Source: an uncultured Ruminococcus sp.
GTDB lineage: Bacteria > Bacillota > Clostridia > Oscillospirales > CAG-272
Direction: 5' to 3'
Assembly (NCBI GenBank): GCA_902795355.1
Contig: CADBKZ010000002.1
Span: forward strand, 62,236 to 126,235
Length of the DNA stretch: 64,000 nucleotides
Below the pieces are notes generated by a model. The model made no database searches. It was not told the origin of the DNA and saw nothing but the letters and a program-made list of their open reading frames with translations. How positions within the stretch are numbered: the first letter of the stretch is position 1; every line of letters starts with the position of its first letter. The position numbers and the translations under genes are program-made. This document shows, piece by piece, positions 50,269-64,000 of the stretch.

Positions 50269-51315
50269 ATGAAACCGAACATCCGATGGACAAAATGGGC
50301 GTCCATAGCGATCTGCGCGGGCGCGGCATGGGTCTTTCTGCGGTACGCGGCGGCCGCGGTGTTTGCGGCCCTGCTGCCGTTTCTCCTTTCCGCCGCGTTG
50401 GCGGTTTCGGTTGCGCCGCTCGCCCGAAAGCTCTCGCGCGTGTTCCATGTTCGGGAGCGCGTTTGCGCCGTCGTCCTGTTTTTTCTTTGCATTGCGGCGG
50501 TATTGCTGATCGGCGGGTTTGCGGCGGCTCGGCTGCTGCGCGAGGCGCAGGAGCTGGTCGCCCGCCTGCTTGCGGACGTGCGGTCGCCCTCTTCCGCGCT
50601 CTCGGACGCCATTGACGCCCTGCGCCTGCCCGAGGGCGAGGACGGCGAGGCGTTTCGGGCGCACCTGAAAGCCATGGTGAACGACCTTGCGAAAAACCTG
50701 CTCGGCTCGCTTGCCGCGCGGTTGCCCCAATGGGCGGCAAAGCTCGCCTCAGGCATTCCGGCGGCCATTCTGTTTGCGGTTGTCACCGTTCTGGCGGGGA
50801 TCCGTTTCTGCCTTGGCGGCGTGGCTTTTCCCGCTTTTTTGCCGGAGCGCGTCCGCTCCGCGCTGTTCGCCCGTAAACCGGCGTTCGCGGCCTTTGCGCG
50901 CAGATACCTGCGCGCCTATTTCCTGCTCTTTTCCATCACCTTTCTGCAATTGCTGGTCGGCTTTCTGATCCTCGGGCTGGATTTTGCCGTTCTGCCCGCG
51001 CTGCTGATTGCGGCGGTGGATATTCTGCCCGTTCTCGGGGTTGGAACCGTCCTGCTCCCGTGGGCGGCGGTGGAATTGCTCTGCCGCCGGTTCTACCTCG
51101 GATTCGGGCTGATCATTCTTTGGTTTGCGATTACAGTGGCGCGGCAGATCGCGGAGCCGCACCTGATTGGAAAAAGCCTCGGCGTTTCCCCGCTTCTCTC
51201 GCTTGCGGCAAGCTACATCGGCTGGCGGCTCGCGGGAGTTACGGGGCTGCTGCTCGGCCCGATTTCGGCGTTCGCAATTCAGGCGGCGGCGTTCCGAAAA
51301 GAACCGACCAAATGA
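50269..51315 (+). CDS. AI-2E family transporter (YtvI-like integral membrane protein)
   Basis: 348 aa, about eight TM helices. General resemblance to PerM/YtvI family proteins. Confidence 0.65.
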   Translation: MKPNIRWTKWASIAICAGAAWVFLRYAAAAVFAALLPFLLSAALAVSVAPLARKLSRVFHVRERVCAVVLFFLCIAAVLLIGGFAAARLLREAQELVARLLADVRSPSSALSDAIDALRLPEGEDGEAFRAHLKAMVNDLAKNLLGSLAARLPQWAAKLASGIPAAILFAVVTVLAGIRFCLGGVAFPAFLPERVRSALFARKPAFAAFARRYLRAYFLLFSITFLQLLVGFLILGLDFAVLPALLIAAVDILPVLGVGTVLLPWAAVELLCRRFYLGFGLIILWFAITVARQIAEPHLIGKSLGVSPLLSLAASYIGWRLAGVTGLLLGPISAFAIQAAAFRKEPTK

Positions 51316-51508
51316 GAAACAAGCGAAAAATCGGCAAAAACAGTTGCAATTCGGGGCCGGATGTGTTATAATATACAATGTGAAGTTTTGCGCTTTTCCG
51401 AAAAAGCGCGAAACCGGATTGAAAATACCGTGGATGCGCCGTTTCCATTCGGGCGCAAACGCGATCGAAATAGAGAAAAACGGTCGTTCAAAAAAGGAGT
51501 TCACCCCA

Positions 51509-52384
51509 TTGAAAGAAAAATTGAAAAAAGCGTTCGCGCCCGTGGTTGCCTACTACCGCGATCTGCGCCCGCGCAACATTACCTCGAAAAAATACAACCA
51601 CCTGCTGCTCCTGCTCTTCTGGGCGGTGTTCGGGTTCATGTTCCTCGCCGTGGAACGCCTGTTCCCCGTCTGGTTTCCCACCCGCTACGGCATTGACGCC
51701 TATTATTCGGTCGTCTGCGCCGCGGACGCTTACATTCCGTTTCACGAATCGTTCGTGATCCCCTACTACTATTGGTTCGCTTTTCTGGCCGTTCCCGCGT
51801 TCTATTTCGGCCTTTGGGAACCCCGCGCGTTCCGCGATTTTCAATGGGGGATCATCCTAACCTACACGGCGGCCATGGTAATCTATATCATCTGGCCGAC
51901 CAAGCAGGATCTGCGCCCCGAGGTTTTCCCGCGGGACAACCTGTTGACCACGATTGCGAAAAACCTCTACGATTTTGACACCAACACCAACGTTTGCCCG
52001 TCCATTCACGTGCTCGGGTCTCTCGCGGTGATGTTCGCGGGGCTTCACAGCCGGACCCTGCGCGGGTGGGGCTGGAAGCTGGTCTTTATTCTCTCCACGG
52101 TGTGGATCAGCATGTCCACCGTATTTCTCAAACAGCATTCGCTTCTGGATGTAATCGCCGCGTTCGGCGTCGGGTTGGTCTGCTACGCGATCCAATTCCG
52201 GCTTTACCCCGTTCTGGAACGGCGTTGGCTGGCCCGCCGCGCGAAAAAAGACGGGATGGAGCGCGCCGCCGTTTCCGAAGCTCCCGCCGCGGTGATTACG
52301 GCCGAGGCGGCCGCAATTGAAACGTCCGCGGCCGAGCCGGAAAGCGACGCCCCCCGCTCCGACGGAAAATCGGAAGGAGACTGA
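51509..52384 (+). CDS. PAP2 superfamily phosphatase (membrane)
   Basis: TTG start after AAGGAG RBS, 291 aa. PSIHV ... KQHSLLDV resembles PAP2 C2/C3 motifs. Ala/Glu-rich tail. Confidence 0.6.
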   Translation: MKEKLKKAFAPVVAYYRDLRPRNITSKKYNHLLLLLFWAVFGFMFLAVERLFPVWFPTRYGIDAYYSVVCAADAYIPFHESFVIPYYYWFAFLAVPAFYFGLWEPRAFRDFQWGIILTYTAAMVIYIIWPTKQDLRPEVFPRDNLLTTIAKNLYDFDTNTNVCPSIHVLGSLAVMFAGLHSRTLRGWGWKLVFILSTVWISMSTVFLKQHSLLDVIAAFGVGLVCYAIQFRLYPVLERRWLARRAKKDGMERAAVSEAPAAVITAEAAAIETSAAEPESDAPRSDGKSEGD

Positions 52385-52386
52385 CA

Positions 52387-52938
52387 ATGCCTTTGTGGTT
52401 GTCTTTCTGCGTCAGCGTGGCCTGCATTGCGGGAGGCGGGATCCTCGCCAACTTCATCGGCGAGGCGCTTCCGCGCTCGTGGTTCCGCGCCGATCGCTTC
52501 CCGTTCCGCACGCGCAAATGGGAACGGAACGGAAAAATTTACGAAAAGGTCGGGGTTCATCGCTGGAAAGACCGCGTTCCCGACATGAGCCGCGTGCGGA
52601 AAAAGAAAATGGTGTCCAAACACCTCGGCAAATGCCCGACGGCCGACGGCGTTCGGACGCTTGCGCTCGAAACCTGCCGCGCCGAGGCGGTACACGCCGC
52701 GCTCTGCCTGCTTTCCGTTGGGCTGATCTTCCTTTGGGACAACCGCTGGCTCGGCGCGGGCGTGGTGGTAATCTACGTGCTTTGCAATCTCCCGTTTATC
52801 ATCATCCAGCGGTATAACCGCCCCGCGCTGCTCGGCCTGGAAGAACGGTTGCGCCGCCGGGAAGCCCGAAAAGCGTTGCTTCGCCAAGCAAGAGAGGAGG
52901 CGACCCTGACCGATGAAAGTCCTGATCCTGTCCGCTGA
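52387..52938 (+). CDS. Small membrane acyltransferase-like protein (glycosyl-4,4'-diaponeurosporenoate acyltransferase family appearance)
   Basis: 183 aa. FRTRKWERNGKIYEKVGVHRWKDRVPD and NLPFIIIQRYNRP blocks recalled from that family. Confidence 0.5.
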   Translation: MPLWLSFCVSVACIAGGGILANFIGEALPRSWFRADRFPFRTRKWERNGKIYEKVGVHRWKDRVPDMSRVRKKKMVSKHLGKCPTADGVRTLALETCRAEAVHAALCLLSVGLIFLWDNRWLGAGVVVIYVLCNLPFIIIQRYNRPALLGLEERLRRREARKALLRQAREEATLTDESPDPVR

Positions 52939-54034
52939 CGCGGGCAAAACCGCAAATTCCGCCGCGGAAGCCGTTTCGGAACAGCTTGCCAGAATGAACC
53001 ACGAGGCCGACCTGATCGACGCGCTGATTATGGTTCCCGAAAACGGCGACATTCTTTCCCATTGGAGCACGTCCCGCGCCTACCACAACCTTTCGCGCCG
53101 CGCGGGGCGATCCTACCTTTCCGAGGAGCGGCACGCCGCGCGCACGCTCTACAAGCTCTGCGCCCTCGGGGCCGACGCGCTTCACAGCGCGCTGGAACAG
53201 GGGCAATATCAGGCGGTGCTCTGCGTTCATGTGTTCTCCTGCATGATGATGACCGCCGTTCGTAAAAAATACGGAAAAACGCCGCCGTTCTATTTCATCG
53301 CCACCGACTACGCCTGCGCCCCGGGGGTTTCCGAACTGAACGCCGACGGCTATTTCATCCCGCACCGGATGCTCTTTGCCGATTTCATCCGCTGCGGCTT
53401 CCCGGCCGATAAGCTCTACGCAACCGGCATTCCCGTTCGCCCCCGCTTTTACGCCGCCGGACCCGAAAAAACCGAACTGCGCCGCGAACTGCAATTGCCC
53501 GAAGAGGGTCGCATGGTTCTTTTGCGCGCGGGAAATCTGCAAGGCAAACACACCGCGCGGCGCGTTCTCTCGCTCCTGCGCGCCTTGCCGAAGGATGTTT
53601 TTCTGGTGGTGCACTGCGGCAAAAACGAGAAACTCCTGCACCAATTGCAGGCCGCGCCGAGAGACCGCCTGATCGCCCTTGGGTTCCATGCGGAACCCGA
53701 AAAATACCTTTTCGCCGCCGACCTCTGCGTTGCGCGGCCGCGCGGCGTTGCCTGCGCCGAAACCTTGGTTTGCGGCCTGCCGCTCGTGCTCTTTCGCGAA
53801 ACGCGCGGCGTGGAAGCGAAGAGCTTTGAATTTCTGCTCCATTGCGGCGTTGCCGAGGGGTCTTGGAGCTGGCGCGACGTAATTCAGTCCACCGTCCTGC
53901 TCCTGACCGACGCGGCCTCGCGCGAACGCCTCGCGGAAGCGACCCGCGCGTTCCTGCCGGCGAACGCCTCCGAACAAATCTGCAAAATCATCGGCCGCAT
54001 CAAGCCGGCCGCATCGGGAGGTACCCCTTCATGA
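52913..54034 (+). CDS. MGDG-synthase-like (GT28) diacylglycerol glycosyltransferase
   Basis: 373 aa. MKVLILSADAG..., N-terminal MGDG_synth-like half and C-terminal GT-B half. Confidence 0.65.
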   Translation: MKVLILSADAGKTANSAAEAVSEQLARMNHEADLIDALIMVPENGDILSHWSTSRAYHNLSRRAGRSYLSEERHAARTLYKLCALGADALHSALEQGQYQAVLCVHVFSCMMMTAVRKKYGKTPPFYFIATDYACAPGVSELNADGYFIPHRMLFADFIRCGFPADKLYATGIPVRPRFYAAGPEKTELRRELQLPEEGRMVLLRAGNLQGKHTARRVLSLLRALPKDVFLVVHCGKNEKLLHQLQAAPRDRLIALGFHAEPEKYLFAADLCVARPRGVACAETLVCGLPLVLFRETRGVEAKSFEFLLHCGVAEGSWSWRDVIQSTVLLLTDAASRERLAEATRAFLPANASEQICKIIGRIKPAASGGTPS

Positions 54035-56364
54035 AACGAATCCTGCTATTCCTTCTCGCCGCCGCGCTTGTCCTTTCGTTCTCTTCCTGTTCCCTGCTCG
54101 GGTTCGGCTCTTCAAAAATAGGGTTCGGCTCCCAAACCGTGCAGACCGAAAAGAACGACGAAAAGAACGAACCCACCTACACCATTACCTACGATCTCGG
54201 GGACGGCACGTCCAACAAAGTGACCTACCGCTCTTCCGACCCCGACTACGCCCCCGAAGACCCGACCCGCGCCGGCTACCGCTTCCGCTATTGGACGCTG
54301 GACGGCAAGGACGGCCAATACAACGGCGTGGTAAAATCGGGTTCCTCGGGCGACATTACGTTCCATGCCGTTTGGGAGCTTGTTACCTACTCGCTGACCT
54401 ATGAAAACGCGGGGGACAGCCACGGCAACCCCGCCGCTTACACGGTGGAAAGCGACCCCGTTACCTTGGCCGAGCCGACCAAAACCGGCTACTATTTCCT
54501 CGGCTGGCAGCTCGACGACGGTCAACTGCAAAAGGAAGTGACCATTCCCAAAGGCTCCACGGGCGACCGCGTATTCCGCGCCGTTTGGAGCGCGACGCCG
54601 TTTTCATTCGCGGTGAAAACGGATGTTGAGGGAGCCGCCGTTACCGCGAGCATTGCGGGCAATCTGCTGAAAACCGATACGCCCATTCGCGTTTCCGCCG
54701 CGGTTTACGCGGGCAACAAGCAGTTCTCCCATTGGGAAGCCAACGGAACAAAGGTTTCGGAGTCCGCGCTCTACACCTTCCCCATGCCCGCGAAGAACCT
54801 CGAACTCAAAGCGATTTACCGCGACCTCTCTTGGCTCTCCTACGATATGGCCTCGGGAACGGGGCTGACGGTTTCCAATCTGCTTTCCGCCGCGCCCACC
54901 CGCTTTCTCGGCGCGGGGATCTCCCCCGACGACTATACCCTGACCGCGACCGGCGTAACCATTTCGGCCGCTTTCCTGCAAACGCTCGTTACAGGCGATT
55001 ACCGTTTCTATATCGCCTCGCTTTCCGGAAGCACGGTCACACAGGAGCGCGTCTTTACCCTGCGGGTTGTCGATAACCGCTCGAGCCTTCCGTTCACAGA
55101 CCCCGCTTCCTACACCGGAAACGCCAAAACCTATTATGAAAAGCCGACGTTTGATTACGGCGGAAAAACCTACCATCGCGTTGCCACAACAGAGGAAGAA
55201 TTCCGCGCCATGGTGGAATACTTTGTGCTGGTGGACGGCGTTCTCCAAATGCAGCGCGACAACGACAAAACCAAGGAATACAGCTTTGATTTTTACCTGT
55301 TCGGCGATCTGGAAACCTTCTCCAAACACGTAACCGACATTTCCTTCCCCATGCACCCCGCCATTTCCTACAAATCGAGCAAGCTCACCTCGGAAGAGGG
55401 CGCGACGATTACCCTTACGGTTAAGTATCAGGACGGGTTGAACAGCGTTACAAGCCCGCAGGCCAAGGACCCGATCGGCGACCGCCAGAAGCTCCTGACC
55501 GCCGCGGGTCGCGCCGCCGACTTCAACAGCTTCCCCATTGACGCGCTGACCCCGACCGCTCCGGTGCGGACGCTCTACGAGCTGGAAGTTCTTCCCTACG
55601 GCTTCAAACCCGCGTTTGCGGCGTCCGCCGCCGACGCGGAAACCGTTTACAACGCCGCGCGGGCGATTCTGCGCGCGATTGTGGACGACGGGATGGACGA
55701 CTACGCCAAGGTTGCCGCCATTTACGCGTGGCTCGGCGAAAACGTGACCTACGACCAAGCGGCGTTCTCCGCCTCGGATTCTTCCTACGCGGCCTACACC
55801 TTAAAAGGCGCGCTGATCGACCGCGTTGCGGTTTGCGACGGCTATGCCAGCGCGTTCCGCCTGCTCTGCCAGATTGAGGGGATCCATGCCGAAGAGGTAA
55901 CGGGCCTCTGCTTGCAGCAAGGCAACCTTTCGGGGCATGCTTGGAGCAAGGTTTGGATCGGCGGCGCGGTTTACGGCGTGGACAGCACATGGGCGCGCCC
56001 GCTCGGCTCGGATTTTGTGACCATGAAGTACCTCTTTATGGATGAAGCCGCCCTGCTTGCCACCCAGCATTACGAAAACGAGACCATCGACAGCAAAACA
56101 GGCAACATAACCCCCATTCGCGTTATAACGCTGGCCGACGCGAGCATTCCGCTCTACCGCGCAACCGTAATTACCCAATCGGGGTATGATTATACCGTGG
56201 AAACCAAAACGGAGTTCGACGCGCTGGTACTCTATCTCCAAACGAACAACATCGGCGCGGCCGAATTTGTTCTGGCAAACAGCGACCTGACGCTTTACAG
56301 CACCTCGGCATACACCGTTTATTCCACCAAAGGTTCCGACCTCTGCTTTATTGAATTTGAATAA
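54031..56364 (+). CDS. Lipoprotein with Listeria-Bacteroides (InlB B-type) repeats and a C-terminal transglutaminase-like cysteine protease domain
   Basis: MKRILLFLLAAALVLSFSSC lipobox. Repeats GYRFRYWTLDG and GYYFLGWQLDDG. C-terminal VCDGYASAFRLLCQ...GHAWSKVW...VDSTW (Cys-His-Asp core). Confidence 0.8.
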   Translation: MKRILLFLLAAALVLSFSSCSLLGFGSSKIGFGSQTVQTEKNDEKNEPTYTITYDLGDGTSNKVTYRSSDPDYAPEDPTRAGYRFRYWTLDGKDGQYNGVVKSGSSGDITFHAVWELVTYSLTYENAGDSHGNPAAYTVESDPVTLAEPTKTGYYFLGWQLDDGQLQKEVTIPKGSTGDRVFRAVWSATPFSFAVKTDVEGAAVTASIAGNLLKTDTPIRVSAAVYAGNKQFSHWEANGTKVSESALYTFPMPAKNLELKAIYRDLSWLSYDMASGTGLTVSNLLSAAPTRFLGAGISPDDYTLTATGVTISAAFLQTLVTGDYRFYIASLSGSTVTQERVFTLRVVDNRSSLPFTDPASYTGNAKTYYEKPTFDYGGKTYHRVATTEEEFRAMVEYFVLVDGVLQMQRDNDKTKEYSFDFYLFGDLETFSKHVTDISFPMHPAISYKSSKLTSEEGATITLTVKYQDGLNSVTSPQAKDPIGDRQKLLTAAGRAADFNSFPIDALTPTAPVRTLYELEVLPYGFKPAFAASAADAETVYNAARAILRAIVDDGMDDYAKVAAIYAWLGENVTYDQAAFSASDSSYAAYTLKGALIDRVAVCDGYASAFRLLCQIEGIHAEEVTGLCLQQGNLSGHAWSKVWIGGAVYGVDSTWARPLGSDFVTMKYLFMDEAALLATQHYENETIDSKTGNITPIRVITLADASIPLYRATVITQSGYDYTVETKTEFDALVLYLQTNNIGAAEFVLANSDLTLYSTSAYTVYSTKGSDLCFIEFE

Positions 56365-56451: not shown

Positions 56452-58092
56452 TTAATACGAAATGTGATAATACGCGAAAGCGGAAGTTTGGGAATCCAAT
56501 CCGCCGTAGAGCGCGTAATCCTCGCCGGAAGTCAGTTCCGCAAGCGGAATCACGCGGTCGAGCGTCAGAATCAGGTCGCCGCGGTCGTTGTAGTATTTCA
56601 CAACGGGTTTGAGCAACTCGGTGGTATCCGAAATCATATAAATACCGTCGAGGAGCCTGCCATACGTGTGGTTGGCGGTTTCGGTCCCCGTAATCAGCGG
56701 GGTAACGGTTCCGTCCGCCCAGCGGAAATACTCGGTATCGCCGTTGCCGTTCTCCTTGGTGAGAATTGCGCAATGCTCAAACGCGTCCTCCAGATCGTAT
56801 CCGGCGGCTTCGTAGTCGTAAAGCTCTTTCAGATCGTAATCATAGAACTTGCCGCCCGCAATGATATAGGAATATTTCAGGTCGTCCGCGCCCGAAACCT
56901 CGCCAATGGTCTTGCCCTTTTCGTTCAGGAGCAGCACGCCGCCGTTGGCAAGCGGAACGCCGAAATAACCGGTGCGGATCTCCTCAAAGAACCCGCCGGC
57001 CTGTTGGTTGGCAACCGTGGCGTCCACGCGGCCGATCATCTTGCCGTTTCCGTCCAGAGCAACGATCATGCGGTCGGTCGCTCCGGTCAGCAGCCAGCCG
57101 TCCGAAATCGGGGAAATGAAGGCAAGGTTGCGGATCTTCTTGTTCAGCGAACCGTCGTCCTCCTCCGCGCCGTTCCCGAGGTCAACCCCGAGGGACGCGC
57201 CGAACGCCAGCACAAATTCGGAATCAATCTCTTTCCCATCGCCCGTTTTGGGGTCGATCAGCACGGTTTTCAAACGGTAGTTGTCGGTCCCGTCGTAATA
57301 GGTGACGTTTTCATCGGTGGGGAGCAACTGATAAGCGGACTGAAACAGAACTTTGCCGTTATTGAGCACCATGGATGCGGCGCTATCGGGCGCGCCTTCC
57401 ACCGAATACACGCTGACGAGCGAAAGATCCTTGTTATAGATATGAACGTTGTTGGTTGCGCCGCCCCACATGGGAGCCACGTTGAAGCAATAATAGTAAT
57501 CCGCGGTGGCCGCGCTGATGGCGGGGAGCGTTGCTTTCAGGGGCGAATAGGCGGTAATTTCGGTCAGCGTTGCGGTTGCGCTGTCGTCGCCGAGGCGGTA
57601 TGCCTTTTTGCCGAAGAACACAATGTCGAAATTGCGCGTTGCGGTTTCAAGGCCGTCCACGGAAGCGATCTCCTGACCCGCGGCATCATAGAGCGTGGTT
57701 TTCTGCGGCAGGGCGGAATCCGAGGTGTCGGTGGTCTGAACGGTGAAATACGCCGTTCTGCCGTCCGGCGCGTAGAGGTTTACGGTGGTGGAATCGAGCA
57801 GGCGCGTGGTTTTGAACACCACTTTGTTTTGCGCGGCGTTATAAACCGAGCAGCTCGTTCCAACCTTTGCGAGCAACACCAGCTCTCCCCGCGTGTTCTG
57901 AACGGTTCCTTCCAGCTCAACCGCTTCCATGGCGGCCGCGGCAGGCTCTTCGGCTGTGGATTTGTTGACGATCTCCTTGAACTTCAACGATTTGGCGTCG
58001 GTTCCGCCGGCTTTGGCTGTTCCGCAGGACGCCAACAACAGAACGGCGCAAAGGAAGATCGACAGGAGCGCGAGAGGTTTGAACTTTCTCAT
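56452..58092 (-). CDS. Hypothetical lipoprotein
   Basis: Start MRKFKPLALLSIFLCAVLLLASC (lipobox) after AGGAGG RBS, 546 aa. No family recognised. Confidence 0.7.
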   Translation of the reverse strand: MRKFKPLALLSIFLCAVLLLASCGTAKAGGTDAKSLKFKEIVNKSTAEEPAAAAMEAVELEGTVQNTRGELVLLAKVGTSCSVYNAAQNKVVFKTTRLLDSTTVNLYAPDGRTAYFTVQTTDTSDSALPQKTTLYDAAGQEIASVDGLETATRNFDIVFFGKKAYRLGDDSATATLTEITAYSPLKATLPAISAATADYYYCFNVAPMWGGATNNVHIYNKDLSLVSVYSVEGAPDSAASMVLNNGKVLFQSAYQLLPTDENVTYYDGTDNYRLKTVLIDPKTGDGKEIDSEFVLAFGASLGVDLGNGAEEDDGSLNKKIRNLAFISPISDGWLLTGATDRMIVALDGNGKMIGRVDATVANQQAGGFFEEIRTGYFGVPLANGGVLLLNEKGKTIGEVSGADDLKYSYIIAGGKFYDYDLKELYDYEAAGYDLEDAFEHCAILTKENGNGDTEYFRWADGTVTPLITGTETANHTYGRLLDGIYMISDTTELLKPVVKYYNDRGDLILTLDRVIPLAELTSGEDYALYGGLDSQTSAFAYYHISY

Positions 58093-58137
58093 GGGAAGTT
58101 CCTCCTTCAAATTTTTTGCGGCGTTGCCGCTGATGTC

Positions 58138-58166
58138 AGTTTATCATATTTTCCCCGAAATGTCAA
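58138..58166 (-). promoter_or_regulatory. Promoter TTGACA-17-TAAACT (minus strand)
   Basis: Plus strand shows agttta (58138-58143) and tgtcaa (58161-58166). Confidence 0.5.
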
Positions 58167-58250
58167 CCGAAAAACAGAAAATAAACGGAAAAGACCCCGA
58201 AAATCGACAAAAGCGGCGGTTTTTCCCTCTTTTTCCGCTTTTCGGGAGCA

Positions 58251-58291
58251 AAAAAGGAAAGCCCTCTTCCTTTGCGGGAAAAGGGCTTTCC
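58251..58291 (-). terminator. Terminator after prfC
   Basis: On the minus strand, ggaaagccc...gggctttcc stem followed by ttttt. Confidence 0.75.
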
Positions 58292-58336
58292 GGCGGGCGG
58301 TTTCAGGCAATGTATCGGAATTGCGCGGCATTGCCT

Positions 58337-59920
58337 TTATTTTCCGAACTCGACCAATTCAAGGTTCGGGTTATCCTCGAGCGTGTGCGAAACCTGCCAC
58401 TCGGTGTTGAACAGCAGAAAATCGCGCCCGCGGAAATCCCGCACCCACTTTACGCCGAACAGGTGGAGCTTTTGCGGGTCGGCGCCGTTGGAAACGCGGC
58501 GGATATATTGGTAGGACTGCGGGTACTGCTTGTAGGTAACGCCGTACTCGGACTTCATGCGCGATTCCAGCACGTCGAATTGCAGGGTTCCCACCACGCC
58601 CACATACACGCGCTCCAAGCCGCCGTTCGGCTCGGTAAAGATCTGAATGGCACCCTCTTGGGCAATCTGGTTCATTCCTTTGGCAAACTGCTTGCGCTTC
58701 ATGCTGTCGATCTGCTCGACCATGATGAAACATTCGGGCGCGAACGTGGGAATCCCCTCGAATTTTACCCGATGCCCCTTGGCGCAAACCGTATCCCCGA
58801 TGGAAAACACCCCGGGGTCGAACACGCCGATGATGTCGCCCGCGTAGGCCTCGGTAATGCCCGCGCGCTCCTGCGCCATCATCTGTTGGGGCTGGGAGAG
58901 CTTGATCTCCTTGCCCGCCTGCACGTGGTAGTATTCCGCGTCCCGCTCGAATTTGCCCGAAACGATGCGCAAAAAGGCAATGCGGTCACGGTGCGCCTTG
59001 TTCATGTTGGCCTGAATTTTGAACACGAACGCCGAAAAGTCGGGCGAGAACGGGTCAACGGTCTCCTCTTCGGTCACGCGCGGCAAGGGAGAGGTGGTCA
59101 TCTTCAAAAAATGTTCCAGAAAGAACTCCACGCCGAAGTTGTTGAGCGCCGAGCCGAAGAACACGGGGCTCAATTTTCCCTCGCGCACCTTTTCAAGGTC
59201 AAAATCGAAGGACGCGCCGTCCAACAGCTCCACCTGCCCCACCAACTCCTCGCGGGCGTAGGAACCGATCAGGGCGTCCAGCTTTTCGGCGTCGTTGATG
59301 TCGCAATCAATCGAGGCCAAGCGGTCGCGGCCGCGGTGCGCGTCGCCGAACGCGAGAATCTTATGCCCTTCTCGGTCGTAAACGCCTTTGAAGCCCACCC
59401 CGCACCCGATGGGCCAATTCATGGGGTAGGTGCCGATTCCGAATTCCTTTTCCAGCTCGTCAATCAGGTCGAACGGGTCGCGGGCTTCGTGGTCGAGCTT
59501 GTTGATAAACGTAAAAATCGGAATATGGCGCATGGCGCAAACCTTAAAGAGCTTGCGCGTTTGCGGCTCGATGCCCTTTGCCGCGTCAATCACCATCACC
59601 GCGCTGTCCGCGGCCATCAGCGTCCGGTAGGTGTCCTCGGAGAAGTCCTGATGCCCCGGGGTATCCAGAATGTTGATGCAGTAGCCCTCGTACTCAAACT
59701 GCATCACCGAAGAGGTAATGGAAATTCCCCTTTTCTTTTCCATTTCCATCCAATCCGAAACCGCGTGGCGGTCGGAAGCCTTGCCCTTGACCGAGCCGGC
59801 GGTCTGAATGGCGCCGCCGTAAAGCAGAAACTTTTCGGTCAGCGTGGTTTTGCCCGCGTCGGGGTGGGAGATAATGGCAAAAGTGCGGCGGCGGTTGATT
59901 TGCTGTTGAATATCGTTCAC
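58337..59920 (-). CDS. prfC: Peptide chain release factor 3
   Basis: 527 aa. RRTFAIISHPDAGKTTLTEKFLLYGGAIQ, DTPGHQDF, NKLD. Confidence 0.95.
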   Translation of the reverse strand: MNDIQQQINRRRTFAIISHPDAGKTTLTEKFLLYGGAIQTAGSVKGKASDRHAVSDWMEMEKKRGISITSSVMQFEYEGYCINILDTPGHQDFSEDTYRTLMAADSAVMVIDAAKGIEPQTRKLFKVCAMRHIPIFTFINKLDHEARDPFDLIDELEKEFGIGTYPMNWPIGCGVGFKGVYDREGHKILAFGDAHRGRDRLASIDCDINDAEKLDALIGSYAREELVGQVELLDGASFDFDLEKVREGKLSPVFFGSALNNFGVEFFLEHFLKMTTSPLPRVTEEETVDPFSPDFSAFVFKIQANMNKAHRDRIAFLRIVSGKFERDAEYYHVQAGKEIKLSQPQQMMAQERAGITEAYAGDIIGVFDPGVFSIGDTVCAKGHRVKFEGIPTFAPECFIMVEQIDSMKRKQFAKGMNQIAQEGAIQIFTEPNGGLERVYVGVVGTLQFDVLESRMKSEYGVTYKQYPQSYQYIRRVSNGADPQKLHLFGVKWVRDFRGRDFLLFNTEWQVSHTLEDNPNLELVEFGK

Positions 59921-60171
59921 GTTCGGTTCCTCGTCTGTTCGTCAATCATACGCTTATTATTATAGCAATCCCGCGCGGATTTTGCAAGTGGTTTTCGCAA
60001 AAAACCGCTTTTTCGGGATTTTCCCGCATTTTGTCGAAGGATTTTCGACGTCAAAATGGGAGAATTTTCAAAAAAGGACTATACAAAAAGTGAATTTCAT
60101 GATATAATAATAGATATCTACCGAATGATTCGGGGAGCGAAACGGCTTGCGCGCCGCTCCCTTTGCGAAGG

Positions 60172-61074
60172 ATGAATGTGATCATGCAACCGAAAAAACC
60201 ACAATGGAACCGCTCCGAACCCCGCTCCGACCGCCCGCGCGACAACCGCGCCGCTCTCAAAAAGGAGCCGCCGTACCACGCGCCGCGGGAACGTTCCGCA
60301 CGCGAGGCGGATGATCCCTCGGGGATCCACGGAGATTATGAAAACGGCGCGGTGATCGGCCGCAGCGCGGTTCGCGAACTGCTGCGCGGCGAACGGACCG
60401 TGGACAAGCTCTTGGTGCAAAAGGGCGAGCGCACCGGTTCCATCGTGGTATTGGTCGCCGAGGCGATCGAGCGCGGGATTCCCGTTGTGGAAGCCGAAAA
60501 AGCAAAACTCGACGCCATTGCGGGGTTTGCCCCGCACCAAGGCGTAATCGCCTTTGCCGCCGAAAAGGAATACTGCACGGTCGAGGACATTCTCGCCCTT
60601 GCCGAGGCGCGCGGCGAGCCTCCTTTGATCGTTCTTTGCGACGGCGTGACCGACCCCTACAACCTCGGCGCGATCATCCGCTGCGCCGAATGCTGCGGCG
60701 CGCACGGGCTGATTATTCCGAAGCGGCGGGCCGCGGGGCTGACCCCGCTTGTTACCAAGGCCTCGGCCGGCGCGCTCGAGCACCTCGCCGTTGCAAAAGT
60801 TGCAAACATCGCCGCCACCGCGGAAGCCCTGAAAAAGCGCGGCGTTTGGGTTTACGCCGCCGAAGCGGACGGAACCAGCCTCTATGAAACCGACCTGACC
60901 GGCCCCTGCGCCATTGTAATGGGGAGCGAGGGCGACGGGGTCTCGCAGATCGTGCGCAAGACCTGCGACGGGGTGATCTCCATCCCGCTTTACGGAAAGG
61001 TCAACTCTTTCAACGTTTCCACCGCCGCCGCCGTAATCCTCGCGGAAGCGGCGCGCCAACACCACAAGACATGA
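60172..61074 (+). CDS. rlmB: 23S rRNA (guanosine-2'-O)-methyltransferase RlmB (SpoU/TrmH family)
   Basis: Basic N-terminal extension, then GRSAVRELL..., DGVTDPYNLGAIIRCAECCGAHG, MGSEGDGVS, LNVSTAAAV. Start uncertain (60163, 60172 or 60184). TGATATAAT extended -10 at about 60100. Confidence 0.88.
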   Translation: MNVIMQPKKPQWNRSEPRSDRPRDNRAALKKEPPYHAPRERSAREADDPSGIHGDYENGAVIGRSAVRELLRGERTVDKLLVQKGERTGSIVVLVAEAIERGIPVVEAEKAKLDAIAGFAPHQGVIAFAAEKEYCTVEDILALAEARGEPPLIVLCDGVTDPYNLGAIIRCAECCGAHGLIIPKRRAAGLTPLVTKASAGALEHLAVAKVANIAATAEALKKRGVWVYAAEADGTSLYETDLTGPCAIVMGSEGDGVSQIVRKTCDGVISIPLYGKVNSFNVSTAAAVILAEAARQHHKT

Positions 61075-61114: not shown

Positions 61115-64000
61115 ATGAGCGGCAAGCAGGAAAACGAACGGCAGAAAGCCAACGAGCTGTTGCAGCAGCTGCAAGCGGTTTATCTCAACGGCGGCAACGA
61201 CCCCGATGAAGAACCGGCCGAACCGCGCGAAGAGCCGGAAAAGGCCGCACGGAAGCAACCGGAACCGTCGGCTCCCGAAAATCGGTCAAAGCCGGACGGC
61301 GAAGCTCCCGCAGCGGCGAAGCCCACGACCCGACCGACGAAAACCGAAAAGAAACCCGCGCCGCAGCCGCAGAAAAAGCCGGTTGCGTCGGCCGCGCCCG
61401 CCGCGATCCTCGCCCTGACCGAGGAAGCGGTTGCAGCCGAGAGCGCGCCCGAGAAGCCCAAAGAAGGAACTCCCGCGCCCGCCAAACAGCCCGAGGCGCA
61501 AAAAACGCCCGAGGAACCCAAGCCCGCGCCCGCGAAAAAAGAAGCGGTGAAAGCGGCGAAAAACGATTCGCAGGGCACCACCCTGCCGCGCTCGGCTCCA
61601 AGCCCGTTCCTGCGCAAGCCCGAACCGCCCGCCGAGGAACCCAAACCCGCGGCGCAGGCTGCGGCGTCCCCTGCAAAGGAACCGGAGCCGGAAGCGGCGG
61701 AAGCTCCCGCCGCAAAGCCGGAAACGGAGCAAAAGCCGAAAACCCGCCCCAACACCGTAAAAGTCCCGCCGCGCAAGCGGAGCGGCATCAACACGGGCGC
61801 CATCCGCCCGAAAAACGCCCCGCCGCAAGGCGAACCGGTCGTCGCCCCGCCCCGCGCCGAAGCGGAAACGCCGAAGCCCGCGGCGTCGGCCGACCGTTAC
61901 GGCGGAACCGCGATTCCCCGCAGACCCGCCGTTATCGTGATTCCGCCCAGAGAACCGGCGGCGCAGCCCGCGCCCGAAAAGAAACCGGAACCCCCGCAGG
62001 CCAAGCCGACGGTCGCGCCCGCTCCCAAGGCGGAGTCGGTCGCTCCCAAGGCAACCGCGGAACCCGCGCCCAAAGCGGCCGAAACACCCGCCGCGCCCGC
62101 GCCTCGTCCCGAACCCGCGGCAAAAACCGAGCCGATAAAAACCGAGCCGATTCTTGCGAGAACGCCCGAAAAACCCGCGGAGAAACCGGCCGAAAAACCC
62201 GCCGCCAAGGAATCGCCCGCACCCGAACGAAAGCCGGAGCCGCGCCCCGTTTCCCGCGTGGTGGATTTCGACGGCCGCCCCACGGTGGAGCCGATTGAAA
62301 ACGTGGAAGCCGCCGAAACGGTCAGCGAGCCGTCCAAGAAAAAGCAGGCGACCCTGCTCCGCCGCACCAAGCGGCAGAAAAAGGCCGAAGAAGGGCTTGA
62401 CGCCACCGCGATTATCGCCAAACGCACGGGGCTTGACGAAAGCGACATTGCCCTGATCTTTGAACTCGGCTACGAAAACGAACTCGGCCGTTTGGTGGGA
62501 TACGAAACGCTGAAAAAGCTGAAATACGAGCATTTGCGCTCCTCGCGCGCGGATACGAGCGACTACTACTCGCAGGCGTTCGGCTACCGCGGCAAAGAAT
62601 ATACTTCCGCAACCCCCCGCGAGCAGGTGCTGGCCGCGTATGTTCACGACCGGCGCAACCTGATCCTGCGCATCGCGCTGACGGCGTTGCTCTGCGTGGT
62701 CCTCTTCATTGCCGATTTTCCGACCCTGCTCGGCGGCGTGTTCCCGACCTATGCCGCGAAGCTCCCGTTCCTGTTCCCGTCGGTCGGTTTCGTTCTGTTC
62801 TGCGCGGTCGTTCTGCTGACCCGCCGACGCATCGTTGCCGGTTGGCGCGCGTTCCTGCGCTTTGCCCCCTCGCCCTATTCGGCGGTTTCGGTTGCCGTTC
62901 CGCTGATGCTGCTTTACGGCGTTGCCGCGATTATTGACGCGCGGGCGGGTACGCTGCTGCCCATGAACTTTGCCGCCGGACTTTCCCTGCTCGCGCTGAC
63001 GGTTTGCGACGCCGTTCGCATTGCGGACGAGATCCGCACGTTCCGCGTGATCTCCGAGGTCGGCGACAAAACCGTGCTTGAAGAATCCGAACCCCGCAAG
63101 AAGAAACTGCGCCAAGGCAACCGCACGGTGAAGATCCTCAACGACGAAGCCGGCGAACGCCTCTACCGCGTGCGCCCCACGCATGAAATCGTCGGGTTCT
63201 TCCGCCGCGTAAACGACCTTTCCGCCGCGTCCGCGCCCTTTACGCACTTTACCGTGTTTTTGCTGGCCTGCGCCGCGGCAAGCGGAATTGCCGCTTCCCT
63301 GATCCTCGACAACCCGATCAAAGGCGTTCTCGTTGCCGCCGCAACGCTGATGTTCTCGGTCCCCGTTTCGGCAACGTGGCTCTTCTTTGACCCCTTGCGC
63401 CGCGCCAACCGCCGCCTGATCTCGCGCCGCTCGGTGCTGGTGGGAGAAGGGTCCGTAAACGAATACAGCGGCAAAAAAACCGTTATTTTCAACGATACCG
63501 AAACCTTCAAGGCCAAGCGGCAAACGCAGATCGCCGTTCGCGACGGCGACGATTTCCGCCGCGACCTGCGGCTGGCGGGAATCCTCTTCCGCAAACTCGG
63601 CGGAACGCTTGCCACCGTTGGAACGGCCGTTGCGGAAAAGGACGAGCCGGATCCAACCGTCAACCTGATCCGCCTGACCGAAACCGGCGTGGAAGCGTTG
63701 GTGGAAAACCGCTACCGGCTTCTGGCGGGCGACTCCTCGTTCCTGACGCACAGCGGCGTGGACGTTCCCAAGGAATCCACCGACCGCTCGGCCATCCGCT
63801 CCCGCGGCGTCAGCATTCTGTATGTGGCCGTTAACGGAACGCTCAAACTGACCTACGAAATTTCCTACACCATGAGCCATTCGTTCCGCGACGTGATCGC
63901 CCTGCTCGCGCAGACCGAAACCACCCTTGCGGTACAATCCTACGACCCCAACCTCAACGACGCGTTCCTGCACGTCGGGTTTGCCGACGGGGACGAGGTG
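61115..64000 (+). CDS. P1B-type-ATPase-like membrane protein with degenerate catalytic motifs and a roughly 440-aa Pro/Ala/Glu/Lys-rich N-terminal region (3' end beyond window; absent from ORF track)
   Basis: Own translation from ATG 61115 (AAGGAG RBS): MSGKQENERQKANELLQQLQ..., long PAEK-rich tract, TM helices from about aa 505, then SVPVSATW (CPC position) and KTVIFNDTETF (DKTGT position, 63488-63508). Frame stays open to base 64000. Confidence 0.8.
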   Translation, partial: MSGKQENERQKANELLQQLQAVYLNGGNDPDEEPAEPREEPEKAARKQPEPSAPENRSKPDGEAPAAAKPTTRPTKTEKKPAPQPQKKPVASAAPAAILALTEEAVAAESAPEKPKEGTPAPAKQPEAQKTPEEPKPAPAKKEAVKAAKNDSQGTTLPRSAPSPFLRKPEPPAEEPKPAAQAAASPAKEPEPEAAEAPAAKPETEQKPKTRPNTVKVPPRKRSGINTGAIRPKNAPPQGEPVVAPPRAEAETPKPAASADRYGGTAIPRRPAVIVIPPREPAAQPAPEKKPEPPQAKPTVAPAPKAESVAPKATAEPAPKAAETPAAPAPRPEPAAKTEPIKTEPILARTPEKPAEKPAEKPAAKESPAPERKPEPRPVSRVVDFDGRPTVEPIENVEAAETVSEPSKKKQATLLRRTKRQKKAEEGLDATAIIAKRTGLDESDIALIFELGYENELGRLVGYETLKKLKYEHLRSSRADTSDYYSQAFGYRGKEYTSATPREQVLAAYVHDRRNLILRIALTALLCVVLFIADFPTLLGGVFPTYAAKLPFLFPSVGFVLFCAVVLLTRRRIVAGWRAFLRFAPSPYSAVSVAVPLMLLYGVAAIIDARAGTLLPMNFAAGLSLLALTVCDAVRIADEIRTFRVISEVGDKTVLEESEPRKKKLRQGNRTVKILNDEAGERLYRVRPTHEIVGFFRRVNDLSAASAPFTHFTVFLLACAAASGIAASLILDNPIKGVLVAAATLMFSVPVSATWLFFDPLRRANRRLISRRSVLVGEGSVNEYSGKKTVIFNDTETFKAKRQTQIAVRDGDDFRRDLRLAGILFRKLGGTLATVGTAVAEKDEPDPTVNLIRLTETGVEALVENRYRLLAGDSSFLTHSGVDVPKESTDRSAIRSRGVSILYVAVNGTLKLTYEISYTMSHSFRDVIALLAQTETTLAVQSYDPNLNDAFLHVGFADGDEV

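Follow-up and report, generated by a model that had tools for sequence, protein, structure and literature searches.

P-type ATPases are defined by the DKTGT, TGES, TGDN and GDGxNDxP motifs. Whether P-type-like proteins in which such motifs are degenerate can be ATPases is disputed for human TMEM94/ERMA, which one structural study found to have neither nucleotide at the proposed site nor ATPase activity (PMC12134183), but which other authors reported as a Mg2+ ATPase of the endoplasmic reticulum (PMC13322241). In the alveolate guanylate cyclases, fused P4-ATPase-like domains, some of them with degenerate motifs, serve non-transport signalling (PMC6592433, PMC13466520). A recent review of P-type ATPase diversity mentions no bacterial counterpart (PMC10654040), and none was found in the literature on pseudo- or degenerate bacterial P-type ATPases and the FUPA families. 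Here we analysed a stretch of 64,000 nucleotides (the window) of contig CADBKZ010000002.1 from an uncultured Ruminococcus sp. (GenBank assembly GCA_902795355.1), the last gene of which encodes a P1B-ATPase-like protein and is cut by the end of the window. An original prediction had proposed a pseudo-ATPase that kept the fold but not the transport chemistry and might have been recruited as a scaffold or receptor, with a disordered N-terminus acting as an interaction or condensate-type region. The gene is a real gene, and homology of its product to the P-type ATPases, with P1B as the nearest architecture, is established. We favour, with a probability of about 60%, the reading that the protein derives from a P1B-ATPase but no longer pumps, and that it probably serves as a binding or tethering module anchored in the membrane.

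The window protein gave no Pfam match even at E ≤ 10, including to PF00122 (E1-E2_ATPase) and PF00702 (Hydrolase), and nothing relevant in NCBIfam or among the PDB sequences, and a Pfam search of 46 family members produced a single PF00122 match with E = 4.6. The closest full-length relative, P0001 (locus L068), is 81% identical to the window protein, and its AlphaFold2 model has a predicted local distance difference test score (pLDDT) above 90 for most of residues 290–850 and a predicted template modelling score of 0.72, with a disordered N-terminus. A Foldseek search of the PDB with this model returned LpCopA (4bbj) first, with E = 2e-14 over ~690 columns, followed by 7r0g, ATP7B and ZntA, and then by KdpB and the P2/P3 pumps, at 11–15% identity. 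The family profile matched the N-domain of ATP7B (2koy) in the equivalent place with E = 0.0027. When a family profile of 106 sequences was aligned by hhalign with a profile of E. coli CopA, ZntA and KdpB, the probability was 94–97%, with E values of 1e-7 (local) and 1e-10 (global) and ~600 collinear columns from MA to M6. This deeper profile was needed for a significant profile–profile score, the smaller alignment of 46 sequences giving a suggestive E = 0.011. Because the Foldseek search, the N-domain match and the hhalign comparison agree, the homology to P-type ATPases proposed in the original prediction is established by both fold and profile. A phmmer search with real pumps against 770 kb of related loci gave no match; neither the 64-kb window nor ~700 kb of related loci encodes a canonical P-type ATPase.

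Model helices and hydropathy together reveal eight membrane helices with MA and MB ahead of M1, which is the P1B topology, and the P-type architecture is present, with the actuator (A) domain between M2 and M3 and the domains for phosphorylation (P) and for nucleotide binding (N) between M4 and M5 (Table 1). As judged from full-length relatives, the full protein has ~1,150 residues, of which the window holds the first ~84%; the ~190 residues beyond it comprise the remainder of the P-like domain, M5 and M6. The MB' platform is highly conserved, with the pattern RxxxAGxRxxxxFxPxPYS, and the G-V-E-A and A-G-D segment of the N-like domain aligns with the ATP7B N-domain. The metal-binding-domain position of the P1B pumps is occupied by a conserved helical module (residues ~411–485) with an invariant ELGY.xELGR.VGY. 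When this module was modelled alone (pLDDT 69), a structure search of the PDB found no neighbour, the best E value being ~5, and the Pfam HMA metal-binding domain had no match in the window protein or in 46 family members.

The defining motifs were then compared column by column among 126 family representatives, with the pump columns numbered as in CopA and the family residues as in P0001. The strings TGE, DKTG and GDG are absent from the whole window product. The M2–M3 loop had been described as actuator-sized and lacking TGE(S); the missing motif holds, as the TGE of CopA (T374-G375-E376) lies inside a ~60-residue deletion relative to CopA, but the loop has only ~56 residues, roughly half an actuator domain. 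KTVIFNDTETF indeed stands in the place of DKTGT, in the register N-D-T-E-T, although the span first assigned to it, 63488–63508, covers FNDTETF only. The phospho-Asp column (D523) is variable across the family, with 46 Asp, 19 Arg, 19 Glu, 8 Ala, 8 Ser and 7 Asn, and it is Asn in the window protein. Members of the far tier have kept Asp in this column more often, a sign of decay in steps. The K524 column is Asp in 115/126, T525 is T, S, K or R, G526 is D or E in 102/126, and T527 is hydrophobic. H562 of the HP motif is replaced by Gly in 116 of the 126 sequences (GG in the window protein), while in GxG the first Gly becomes E or D and the second is kept in 122/126. C479-P480-C481 is rewritten as [M/A/L]-P-[L/V/I], with the M4 proline kept in 124/126; in the window protein VPV aligns with CPC, as had been proposed for SVPVSATW. 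T673-G-D-N becomes [T/S]-[Y/F]-D-P (T/S in 124, D in 112 and P in 125 of the 126), and the S-Y-D-P of AVQSYDPNLND (63929–63961) was likewise correctly placed over T-G-D-N. The K701 column is unconserved.

The remaining motif lies past the edge of the window and was followed in full-length relatives. GDGxNDxP aligns to a gap, the P-like domain being ~23 residues shorter, and the full-length relative contains no GDG. The relatives continue with VRVIKPxxYE...D-[ST]-G-A-V-A-L-G and two poorly conserved helices, and hold no canonical motif past the window edge. From the motif and conservation data, therefore, the predicted registers are correct and the true motifs do not lie elsewhere or downstream; the degenerate states are those of the family, TGE and GDGxND falling in gaps.

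The conservation pattern across the domains is the opposite of a pump's. Column identity is 0.68–0.75 in the cytoplasmic domains, as compared to 0.53 in M5 and 0.42 in M6, which are the least conserved ordered segments; M6 has no position conserved at ≥90%, whereas 27 of the 101 positions of the N-like domain reach this level. This pattern bears on the idea that the protein is a P1B-type transport ATPase, still active though extremely divergent, that moves a metal or another small substrate with non-canonical motifs. Such a pump would explain why P1B topology and headpiece are complete, why the M4 proline is invariant and why the MB' platform, which resembles the chaperone-docking platform of CopA, is conserved, and it would suit the automatic name "cation transport ATPase" given to one fragment by the Joint Genome Institute (JGI). 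However, it would have to work without a TGES loop and without GDGxNDxP, with a phospho-Asp column that is just 37% Asp, with GG for HP and a hydrophobic replacement of CPC, with essentially no conserved residues in M5 and M6, and with neither an HMA domain nor any Pfam match. To our knowledge, every P-type ATPase studied so far loses turnover when its phosphorylated Asp is exchanged for Asn. We consider an active pump very improbable.

Several observations weigh against the favoured reading. D577, the Asp of FNDTE, lies one residue past the phospho-Asp column and is near-invariant (115/126), and the residue at its +2 position (579) is acidic in 102/126. T/S725 (124/126) and D727 (112/126) also persist, and K/R750 and D764-[ST]-G do so across all divergence tiers. 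A one-residue bulge would rebuild the HAD-type constellation of D-x-D/E, S/T and K, in which case the P-like domain may have kept the ability to bind Mg2+ and phosphate or to undergo phosphorylation. In addition, the invariant M4 proline and the conserved N-like domain point to a core with a specific job beyond anchoring. Finally, the linkage to the neighbouring genes described below is ancient and tight, but it may represent inherited gene order and not functional coupling.

In HAD phosphatases, motif I is DxD, and with an Asp at +2 no separate TGES loop is needed. The family could still comprise phospho-enzymes, the P-like domain of which would have drifted away from the DKTGT/TGES design of P-type pumps and back to a self-contained HAD-type site made of D577, the acidic +2 residue, T/S725, D727, K/R750 and D764. 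Such a site would act as a phosphatase or would be a phospho-Asp switch controlling the headpiece and tail, in either case without ion transport. Besides the conservation of these residues, the motif I of far-tier members, h-h-F-x-D-x-[D/E]-h-F (for example VIFDDKDIF, SFEDRDVF and TFKDTDAI), resembles the DxD of HAD enzymes, and the loss of TGES would be tolerable if the Asp at +2 acted as the general acid/base. On the other hand, hhalign places D577 in the Lys column and not in the Asp column; the strand's run of four hydrophobic residues stops at 575, which puts the canonical nucleophile at the variable residue 576. Among the 46 closest relatives, the +2 residue is Arg in 20 and D727 is Asn in 17. 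The Mg2+-binding GDGxND segment (motif IV) is absent. The column that hhalign assigns to the Lys of motif III is unconserved, K/R750 being a conserved candidate for motif III but not the column paired with K701. Because D577, the acidic +2 residue and T/S-x-D persist and the M4 proline is kept, HAD-like phosphoryl chemistry is conceivable; we hold it to be a serious possibility, yet on balance rather unlikely. The idea of a pseudo-ATPase is therefore partly supported: the fold is retained, but the loss of chemistry is what we infer in the face of D577, the acidic +2 residue, T/S725, D727 and K/R750.

The reading frame itself required scrutiny, as a GC content of 60–70% favours long spurious frames and one such frame lies antisense. 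The predicted plus-strand frame was confirmed: from ATG 61115, which has an AAAGGAG Shine–Dalgarno sequence ~10 nt upstream, to base 64000 it contains no stop across 962 codons. Its GC content at codon positions 1, 2 and 3 is 0.67/0.50/0.76, the same pattern as in the neighbouring genes, and the antisense frame shows the mirror image (0.76/0.51/0.67). Substitutions relative to the 81%-identical relative fall 89/50/230 on the three plus-frame codon positions of the ordered core. The antisense product, which had rightly been called a shadow, had no Pfam match, and its GC mirror pattern, the third-position substitution excess and this null result rule it out as a gene.

The start codon deserves equal attention. 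Gene callers chose differing starts in relatives: P0001 was begun at an internal Met, which is a contig-edge artefact, and P0002 was given 885 residues as against a possible 1,064. An N-terminal peptide with the consensus MS.K(E/Q).(D/E)R.KA.ELL..L.A is aligned at residue 1 across five related species, which fixes the start codon at 61115. In most of ~50 loci, the first in-frame ATG lies 35–60 nt past rlmB, even with extensions of 600–800 residues. A start ~400 codons downstream is ruled out by the peptide at residue 1 together with this spacing. The first 440 residues of the window product hold only one Met. Thus, the long N-terminal region is translated, as had been assumed, on the evidence of its conserved islands, the peptide at residue 1 and the first ATG close after rlmB. 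That the whole feature is an artefact, whether a decaying pseudogene, a spurious frame of GC-rich DNA, the antisense gene or a late start, is scarcely credible against thousands of homologues under purifying selection, the codon-position GC of the plus frame and the placement of the start.

The N-terminal region had been described as low in complexity and free of hydrophobic segments over its first ~440 residues. In agreement with this, these residues are 62% P, A, E and K (19, 19, 13 and 11%, respectively), and there is no hydrophobic segment ahead of residue 513. However, the description misses the ordered helical module at residues ~411–485 and the conserved islands within the tail. The islands have, in related species, the consensus sequences AAPAAILALTE, RPN.VK.PPR(K/R)(K/R)SG.NTGAI, VIVI-P-R and VDFD...VEPIEN.EA.ETVSEP, and the linkers between them vary in length and composition. 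The DLLKKLQA motif of the N-terminal peptide was found again in 15 representatives. Across family representatives, the extension has a median length of 464 residues. Two in-frame tandem repeats are present in the disordered region, one of a 15-nt unit repeated twice (62122–62151, encoding KTEPI) and one of a 12-nt unit repeated 3.2 times (62166–62204, encoding PEKPAEKPAEKPA); the presence of such short repeats suggests that repeat slippage drives the variation in tail length.

The stickers-and-spacers model provides the background for judging, from composition, whether a disordered region is more likely a condensate former or an extended tether. The tail is 15% acidic, 16% basic, 19% Pro and 19% Ala, with 1% aromatic residues. 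A driver of condensates, rich in stickers, would be a poorer fit to this composition than an extended soluble tether that bears short linear motifs. The proposal of a condensate-type N-terminus is accordingly disfavoured by the P/A/E/K polyampholyte composition and the scarcity of aromatics.

Taken as a non-pumping derivative, the protein would have descended from P1B-type pumps, retaining the eight helices and the A-like, P-like and N-like domains. The Post-Albers cycle would have been lost with the halving of the actuator and its TGES loop, the release of constraint on the phospho-Asp, the deletion of GDGxNDxP, the change of HP to GG and the disappearance of CPC; the metal ligands of M5 and M6 are gone as well, and ion pumping is most likely absent. 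Selection acts on the cytoplasmic headpiece, the MB' platform and the family-specific N-terminal helical module, as well as on short linear motifs along a P/A/E/K polyampholyte tail of 100–700 residues. In this arrangement the headpiece, platform and module may work together at the membrane as a binding or conformational unit, to which the flexible tail may recruit cytoplasmic partners, possibly in the pathway of the neighbouring RlmB and TIGR03960/TIGR03936 radical-SAM proteins. The data show that the gene is real and establish the fold, the homology, the motif states, the conservation pattern and the synteny; that ATP-driven transport is absent, that the protein is a tether or scaffold and that it is linked to the neighbouring genes is what we infer. 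The boldest form of the proposal is that this is the first recognised bacterial "pseudo-pump" family, using a P1B body as a membrane platform and a tail that brings cytoplasmic machinery to the membrane, which, from the invariant order of rlmB, this gene and TIGR03960/TIGR03936, could be ribosome- or RNA-modification enzymes; we regard it as unlikely. If a pseudo-pump reading were true, thousands of Clostridia proteins would have a P1B body that serves as a membrane platform with no Post-Albers cycle.

Table 1. Positions of the P1B-ATPase-like gene, its parts and the adjoining features in the window
Feature	Coordinates	Strand	Basis or remark
Sigma-70-like promoter, TATACA, 17-nt spacer, TG-TATAAT	60080..60108	+	10/12 matches, extended -10; consensus match only
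RlmB, 23S rRNA (guanosine2251-2'-O)-methyltransferase, SpoU family	60163..61074	+	Conserved 5' neighbour
P1B-ATPase-like protein, coding sequence	61115..64000	+	Residues 1–962, cut by window end
N-terminal peptide MSGKQENERQKANELLQQLQAVYL, amphipathic helix motif	61115..61186	+	Aligned at residue 1, five species
Disordered P/A/E/K-rich polyampholyte tether	61187..62344	+	Composition; pLDDT <50 in relative's model
Antisense 895-residue shadow open reading frame	61286..63973	-	GC pattern, substitutions, Pfam null
Conserved island SAAPAAILALTEEA within tether	61388..61429	+	Cross-species conservation
Conserved basic island RPNTVKVPPRKRSGINTGAIRPK	61745..61813	+	Cross-species conservation
Island RRPAVIVIPPRE, local form of xIVI(R/K)PR	61919..61954	+	Family-wide motif, at least 18 representatives
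Conserved acidic island VVDFDGRPTVEPIENVEAAETVSEP	62258..62332	+	Cross-species conservation
Ordered N-terminal helical module, invariant ELGYENELGRLVGYETLKKLK	62345..62569	+	Column identity 0.70
MA, MB, MB' platform, M1 and M2 helices	62618..63052	+	Aligned with MA through M2 of CopA
A-like mini-domain, ~56 residues, conserved basic loop EPRKKKLRQG, without TGES loop	63053..63220	+	
M3 and M4	63221..63424	+	M4 with SVPVSATW at 63356–63379
Degenerate phosphorylation motif KTVIFNDTETF	63476..63508	+	Asn in phospho-Asp column, then family-invariant Asp
N-like domain	63536..63838	+	GG for HP: LFRKLGGTL, 63572–63610
Hinge motif LAVQSYDPNLND, S-Y-D-P-N for T-G-D-N	63926..63961	+	T/S and D kept

The family is large, conserved and bacterial. 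The window protein has 84 close homologues (best E = 1e-273), all of them annotated as hypothetical and from metagenome-assembled genomes of Clostridia, and a profile search retrieved 2,469 representative clusters, counted at 50% identity, at E ≤ 1e-3 and 741 at E ≤ 1e-30. Many members have 900–1,300 residues, with the conserved core C-terminal. Every member with a name is a hypothetical protein from Clostridia or Eubacteriales, and gut and rumen Clostridia are rich in the family. Its only pump-hinting annotation is the JGI name mentioned above, carried by P0083, a C-terminal fragment of 298 residues. With no Pfam or NCBIfam model for 2,469 clusters, the family marks an annotation gap. It has the whole pump architecture with the defining motifs lost or rewritten, and thereby offers a natural experiment on the P-type fold without its cycle, which bears on the TMEM94/ERMA dispute.

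Regarding the genomic context, rlmB is the immediate upstream neighbour, on the same strand, in essentially all of ~50 loci. In the window, its product matches Pfam SpoU_methylase and SpoU_sub_bind, and TIGR00186 with 203 bits against a cutoff of 160. Downstream on the same strand, every locus with enough flank encodes a TIGR03960 B12-radical-SAM protein with TIGR03936/DUF2344. The two parts are one fused gene of ~870 codons in the clade of the window (L002, 10388–13003) and two adjacent genes in distant lineages (L069, 9612–12076; L070, 9897–12465; L071, 9847–12470). This order of rlmB, the P1B-ATPase-like gene and the radical-SAM gene is kept even in far-tier members with ~25–30% core identity, and it provides a lead on three uncharacterised proteins together; no published function was found in the literature for the TIGR03960/DUF2344 pair. 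The promoter upstream of rlmB (Table 1) is likely, from its consensus match, to drive a transcript of rlmB and the P1B-ATPase-like gene. The 40-nt gap between the two holds neither a promoter nor a terminator on the plus strand, and the two genes are probably co-transcribed. At a single locus (L001, 6949–7974), an extra gene of 341 codons, without a Pfam match, lies between rlmB and the ATPase-like gene.

In family-bearing genomes, the spoIIIA operon, Spo0A and MreB are encoded close to the locus (L071, 12613–16835; L002, 4411–5193), and for this reason the hosts are likely spore-forming Clostridia. Further upstream in the window, two plus-strand open reading frames of 648 and 678 codons (56464–58410 and 57929–59965) overlap by ~480 nt and have no Pfam or NCBIfam match. 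They are preceded by a gene for an 840-residue protein with Listeria–Bacteroides repeat domains and a transglutaminase-like core (53842–56364, plus strand), probably a surface protein, and by a membrane- and lipid-related run on the plus strand (50269–54034) that encodes an AI-2E family transporter, a PAP2 phosphatase and a glycosyltransferase resembling monogalactosyldiacylglycerol (MGDG) synthase. No Rfam family scored above its gathering threshold anywhere in the 64-kb window.

Among described proteins, the P1B-1 copper ATPases (Legionella CopA, 4bbj/3rfu; E. coli CopA; ATP7B) are the best structural match and are collinear over the ordered region. They share with the window protein the MA, MB and M1–M6 topology and the order of the A, P and N domains, and can be aligned with it at the M4 proline, at T and D of TGDN and at the N-domain pattern G-x-E/G...l-l-G. 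Unlike these pumps, the window protein has a helical module in place of the HMA domain and a half-size A domain without TGES, reads VPV for CPC, N-D-T-E-T for DKTGT and GG for HP, lacks GDGxNDxP and the M5/M6 ligands, and carries an added disordered N-terminus of 100–700 residues, all at 11–15% sequence identity.

KdpB, a P1A pump, belongs to the second-best structural group (E = 1e-9 to 1e-10) and is part of the reference profile that aligned at 94–97%; however, it has seven helices, full catalytic motifs and the partners KdpA, KdpC and KdpF, none of which is encoded near the window gene. As compared to HAD phosphatases, the P-like domain is a HAD Rossmannoid core, in which D-x-[D/E] after strand 1 and S/T ending strand 2 resemble motifs I and II, but the register carries an uncertainty of one residue, motif IV cannot be recognised, with only D764 left, and there is no Pfam Hydrolase match. 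The alveolate cyclase modules are eukaryotic, of P4 (flippase) origin and fused to a cyclase, whereas the window protein has no added enzymatic domain. TMEM94/ERMA shares a P-type-like architecture, an A-like domain without TGES and an M4 proline motif, but it is eukaryotic, has ten helices, retains a candidate phospho-Asp and is not specifically related. In concept, TMEM94/ERMA is the nearest precedent for a pump fold that lacks the pump cycle.

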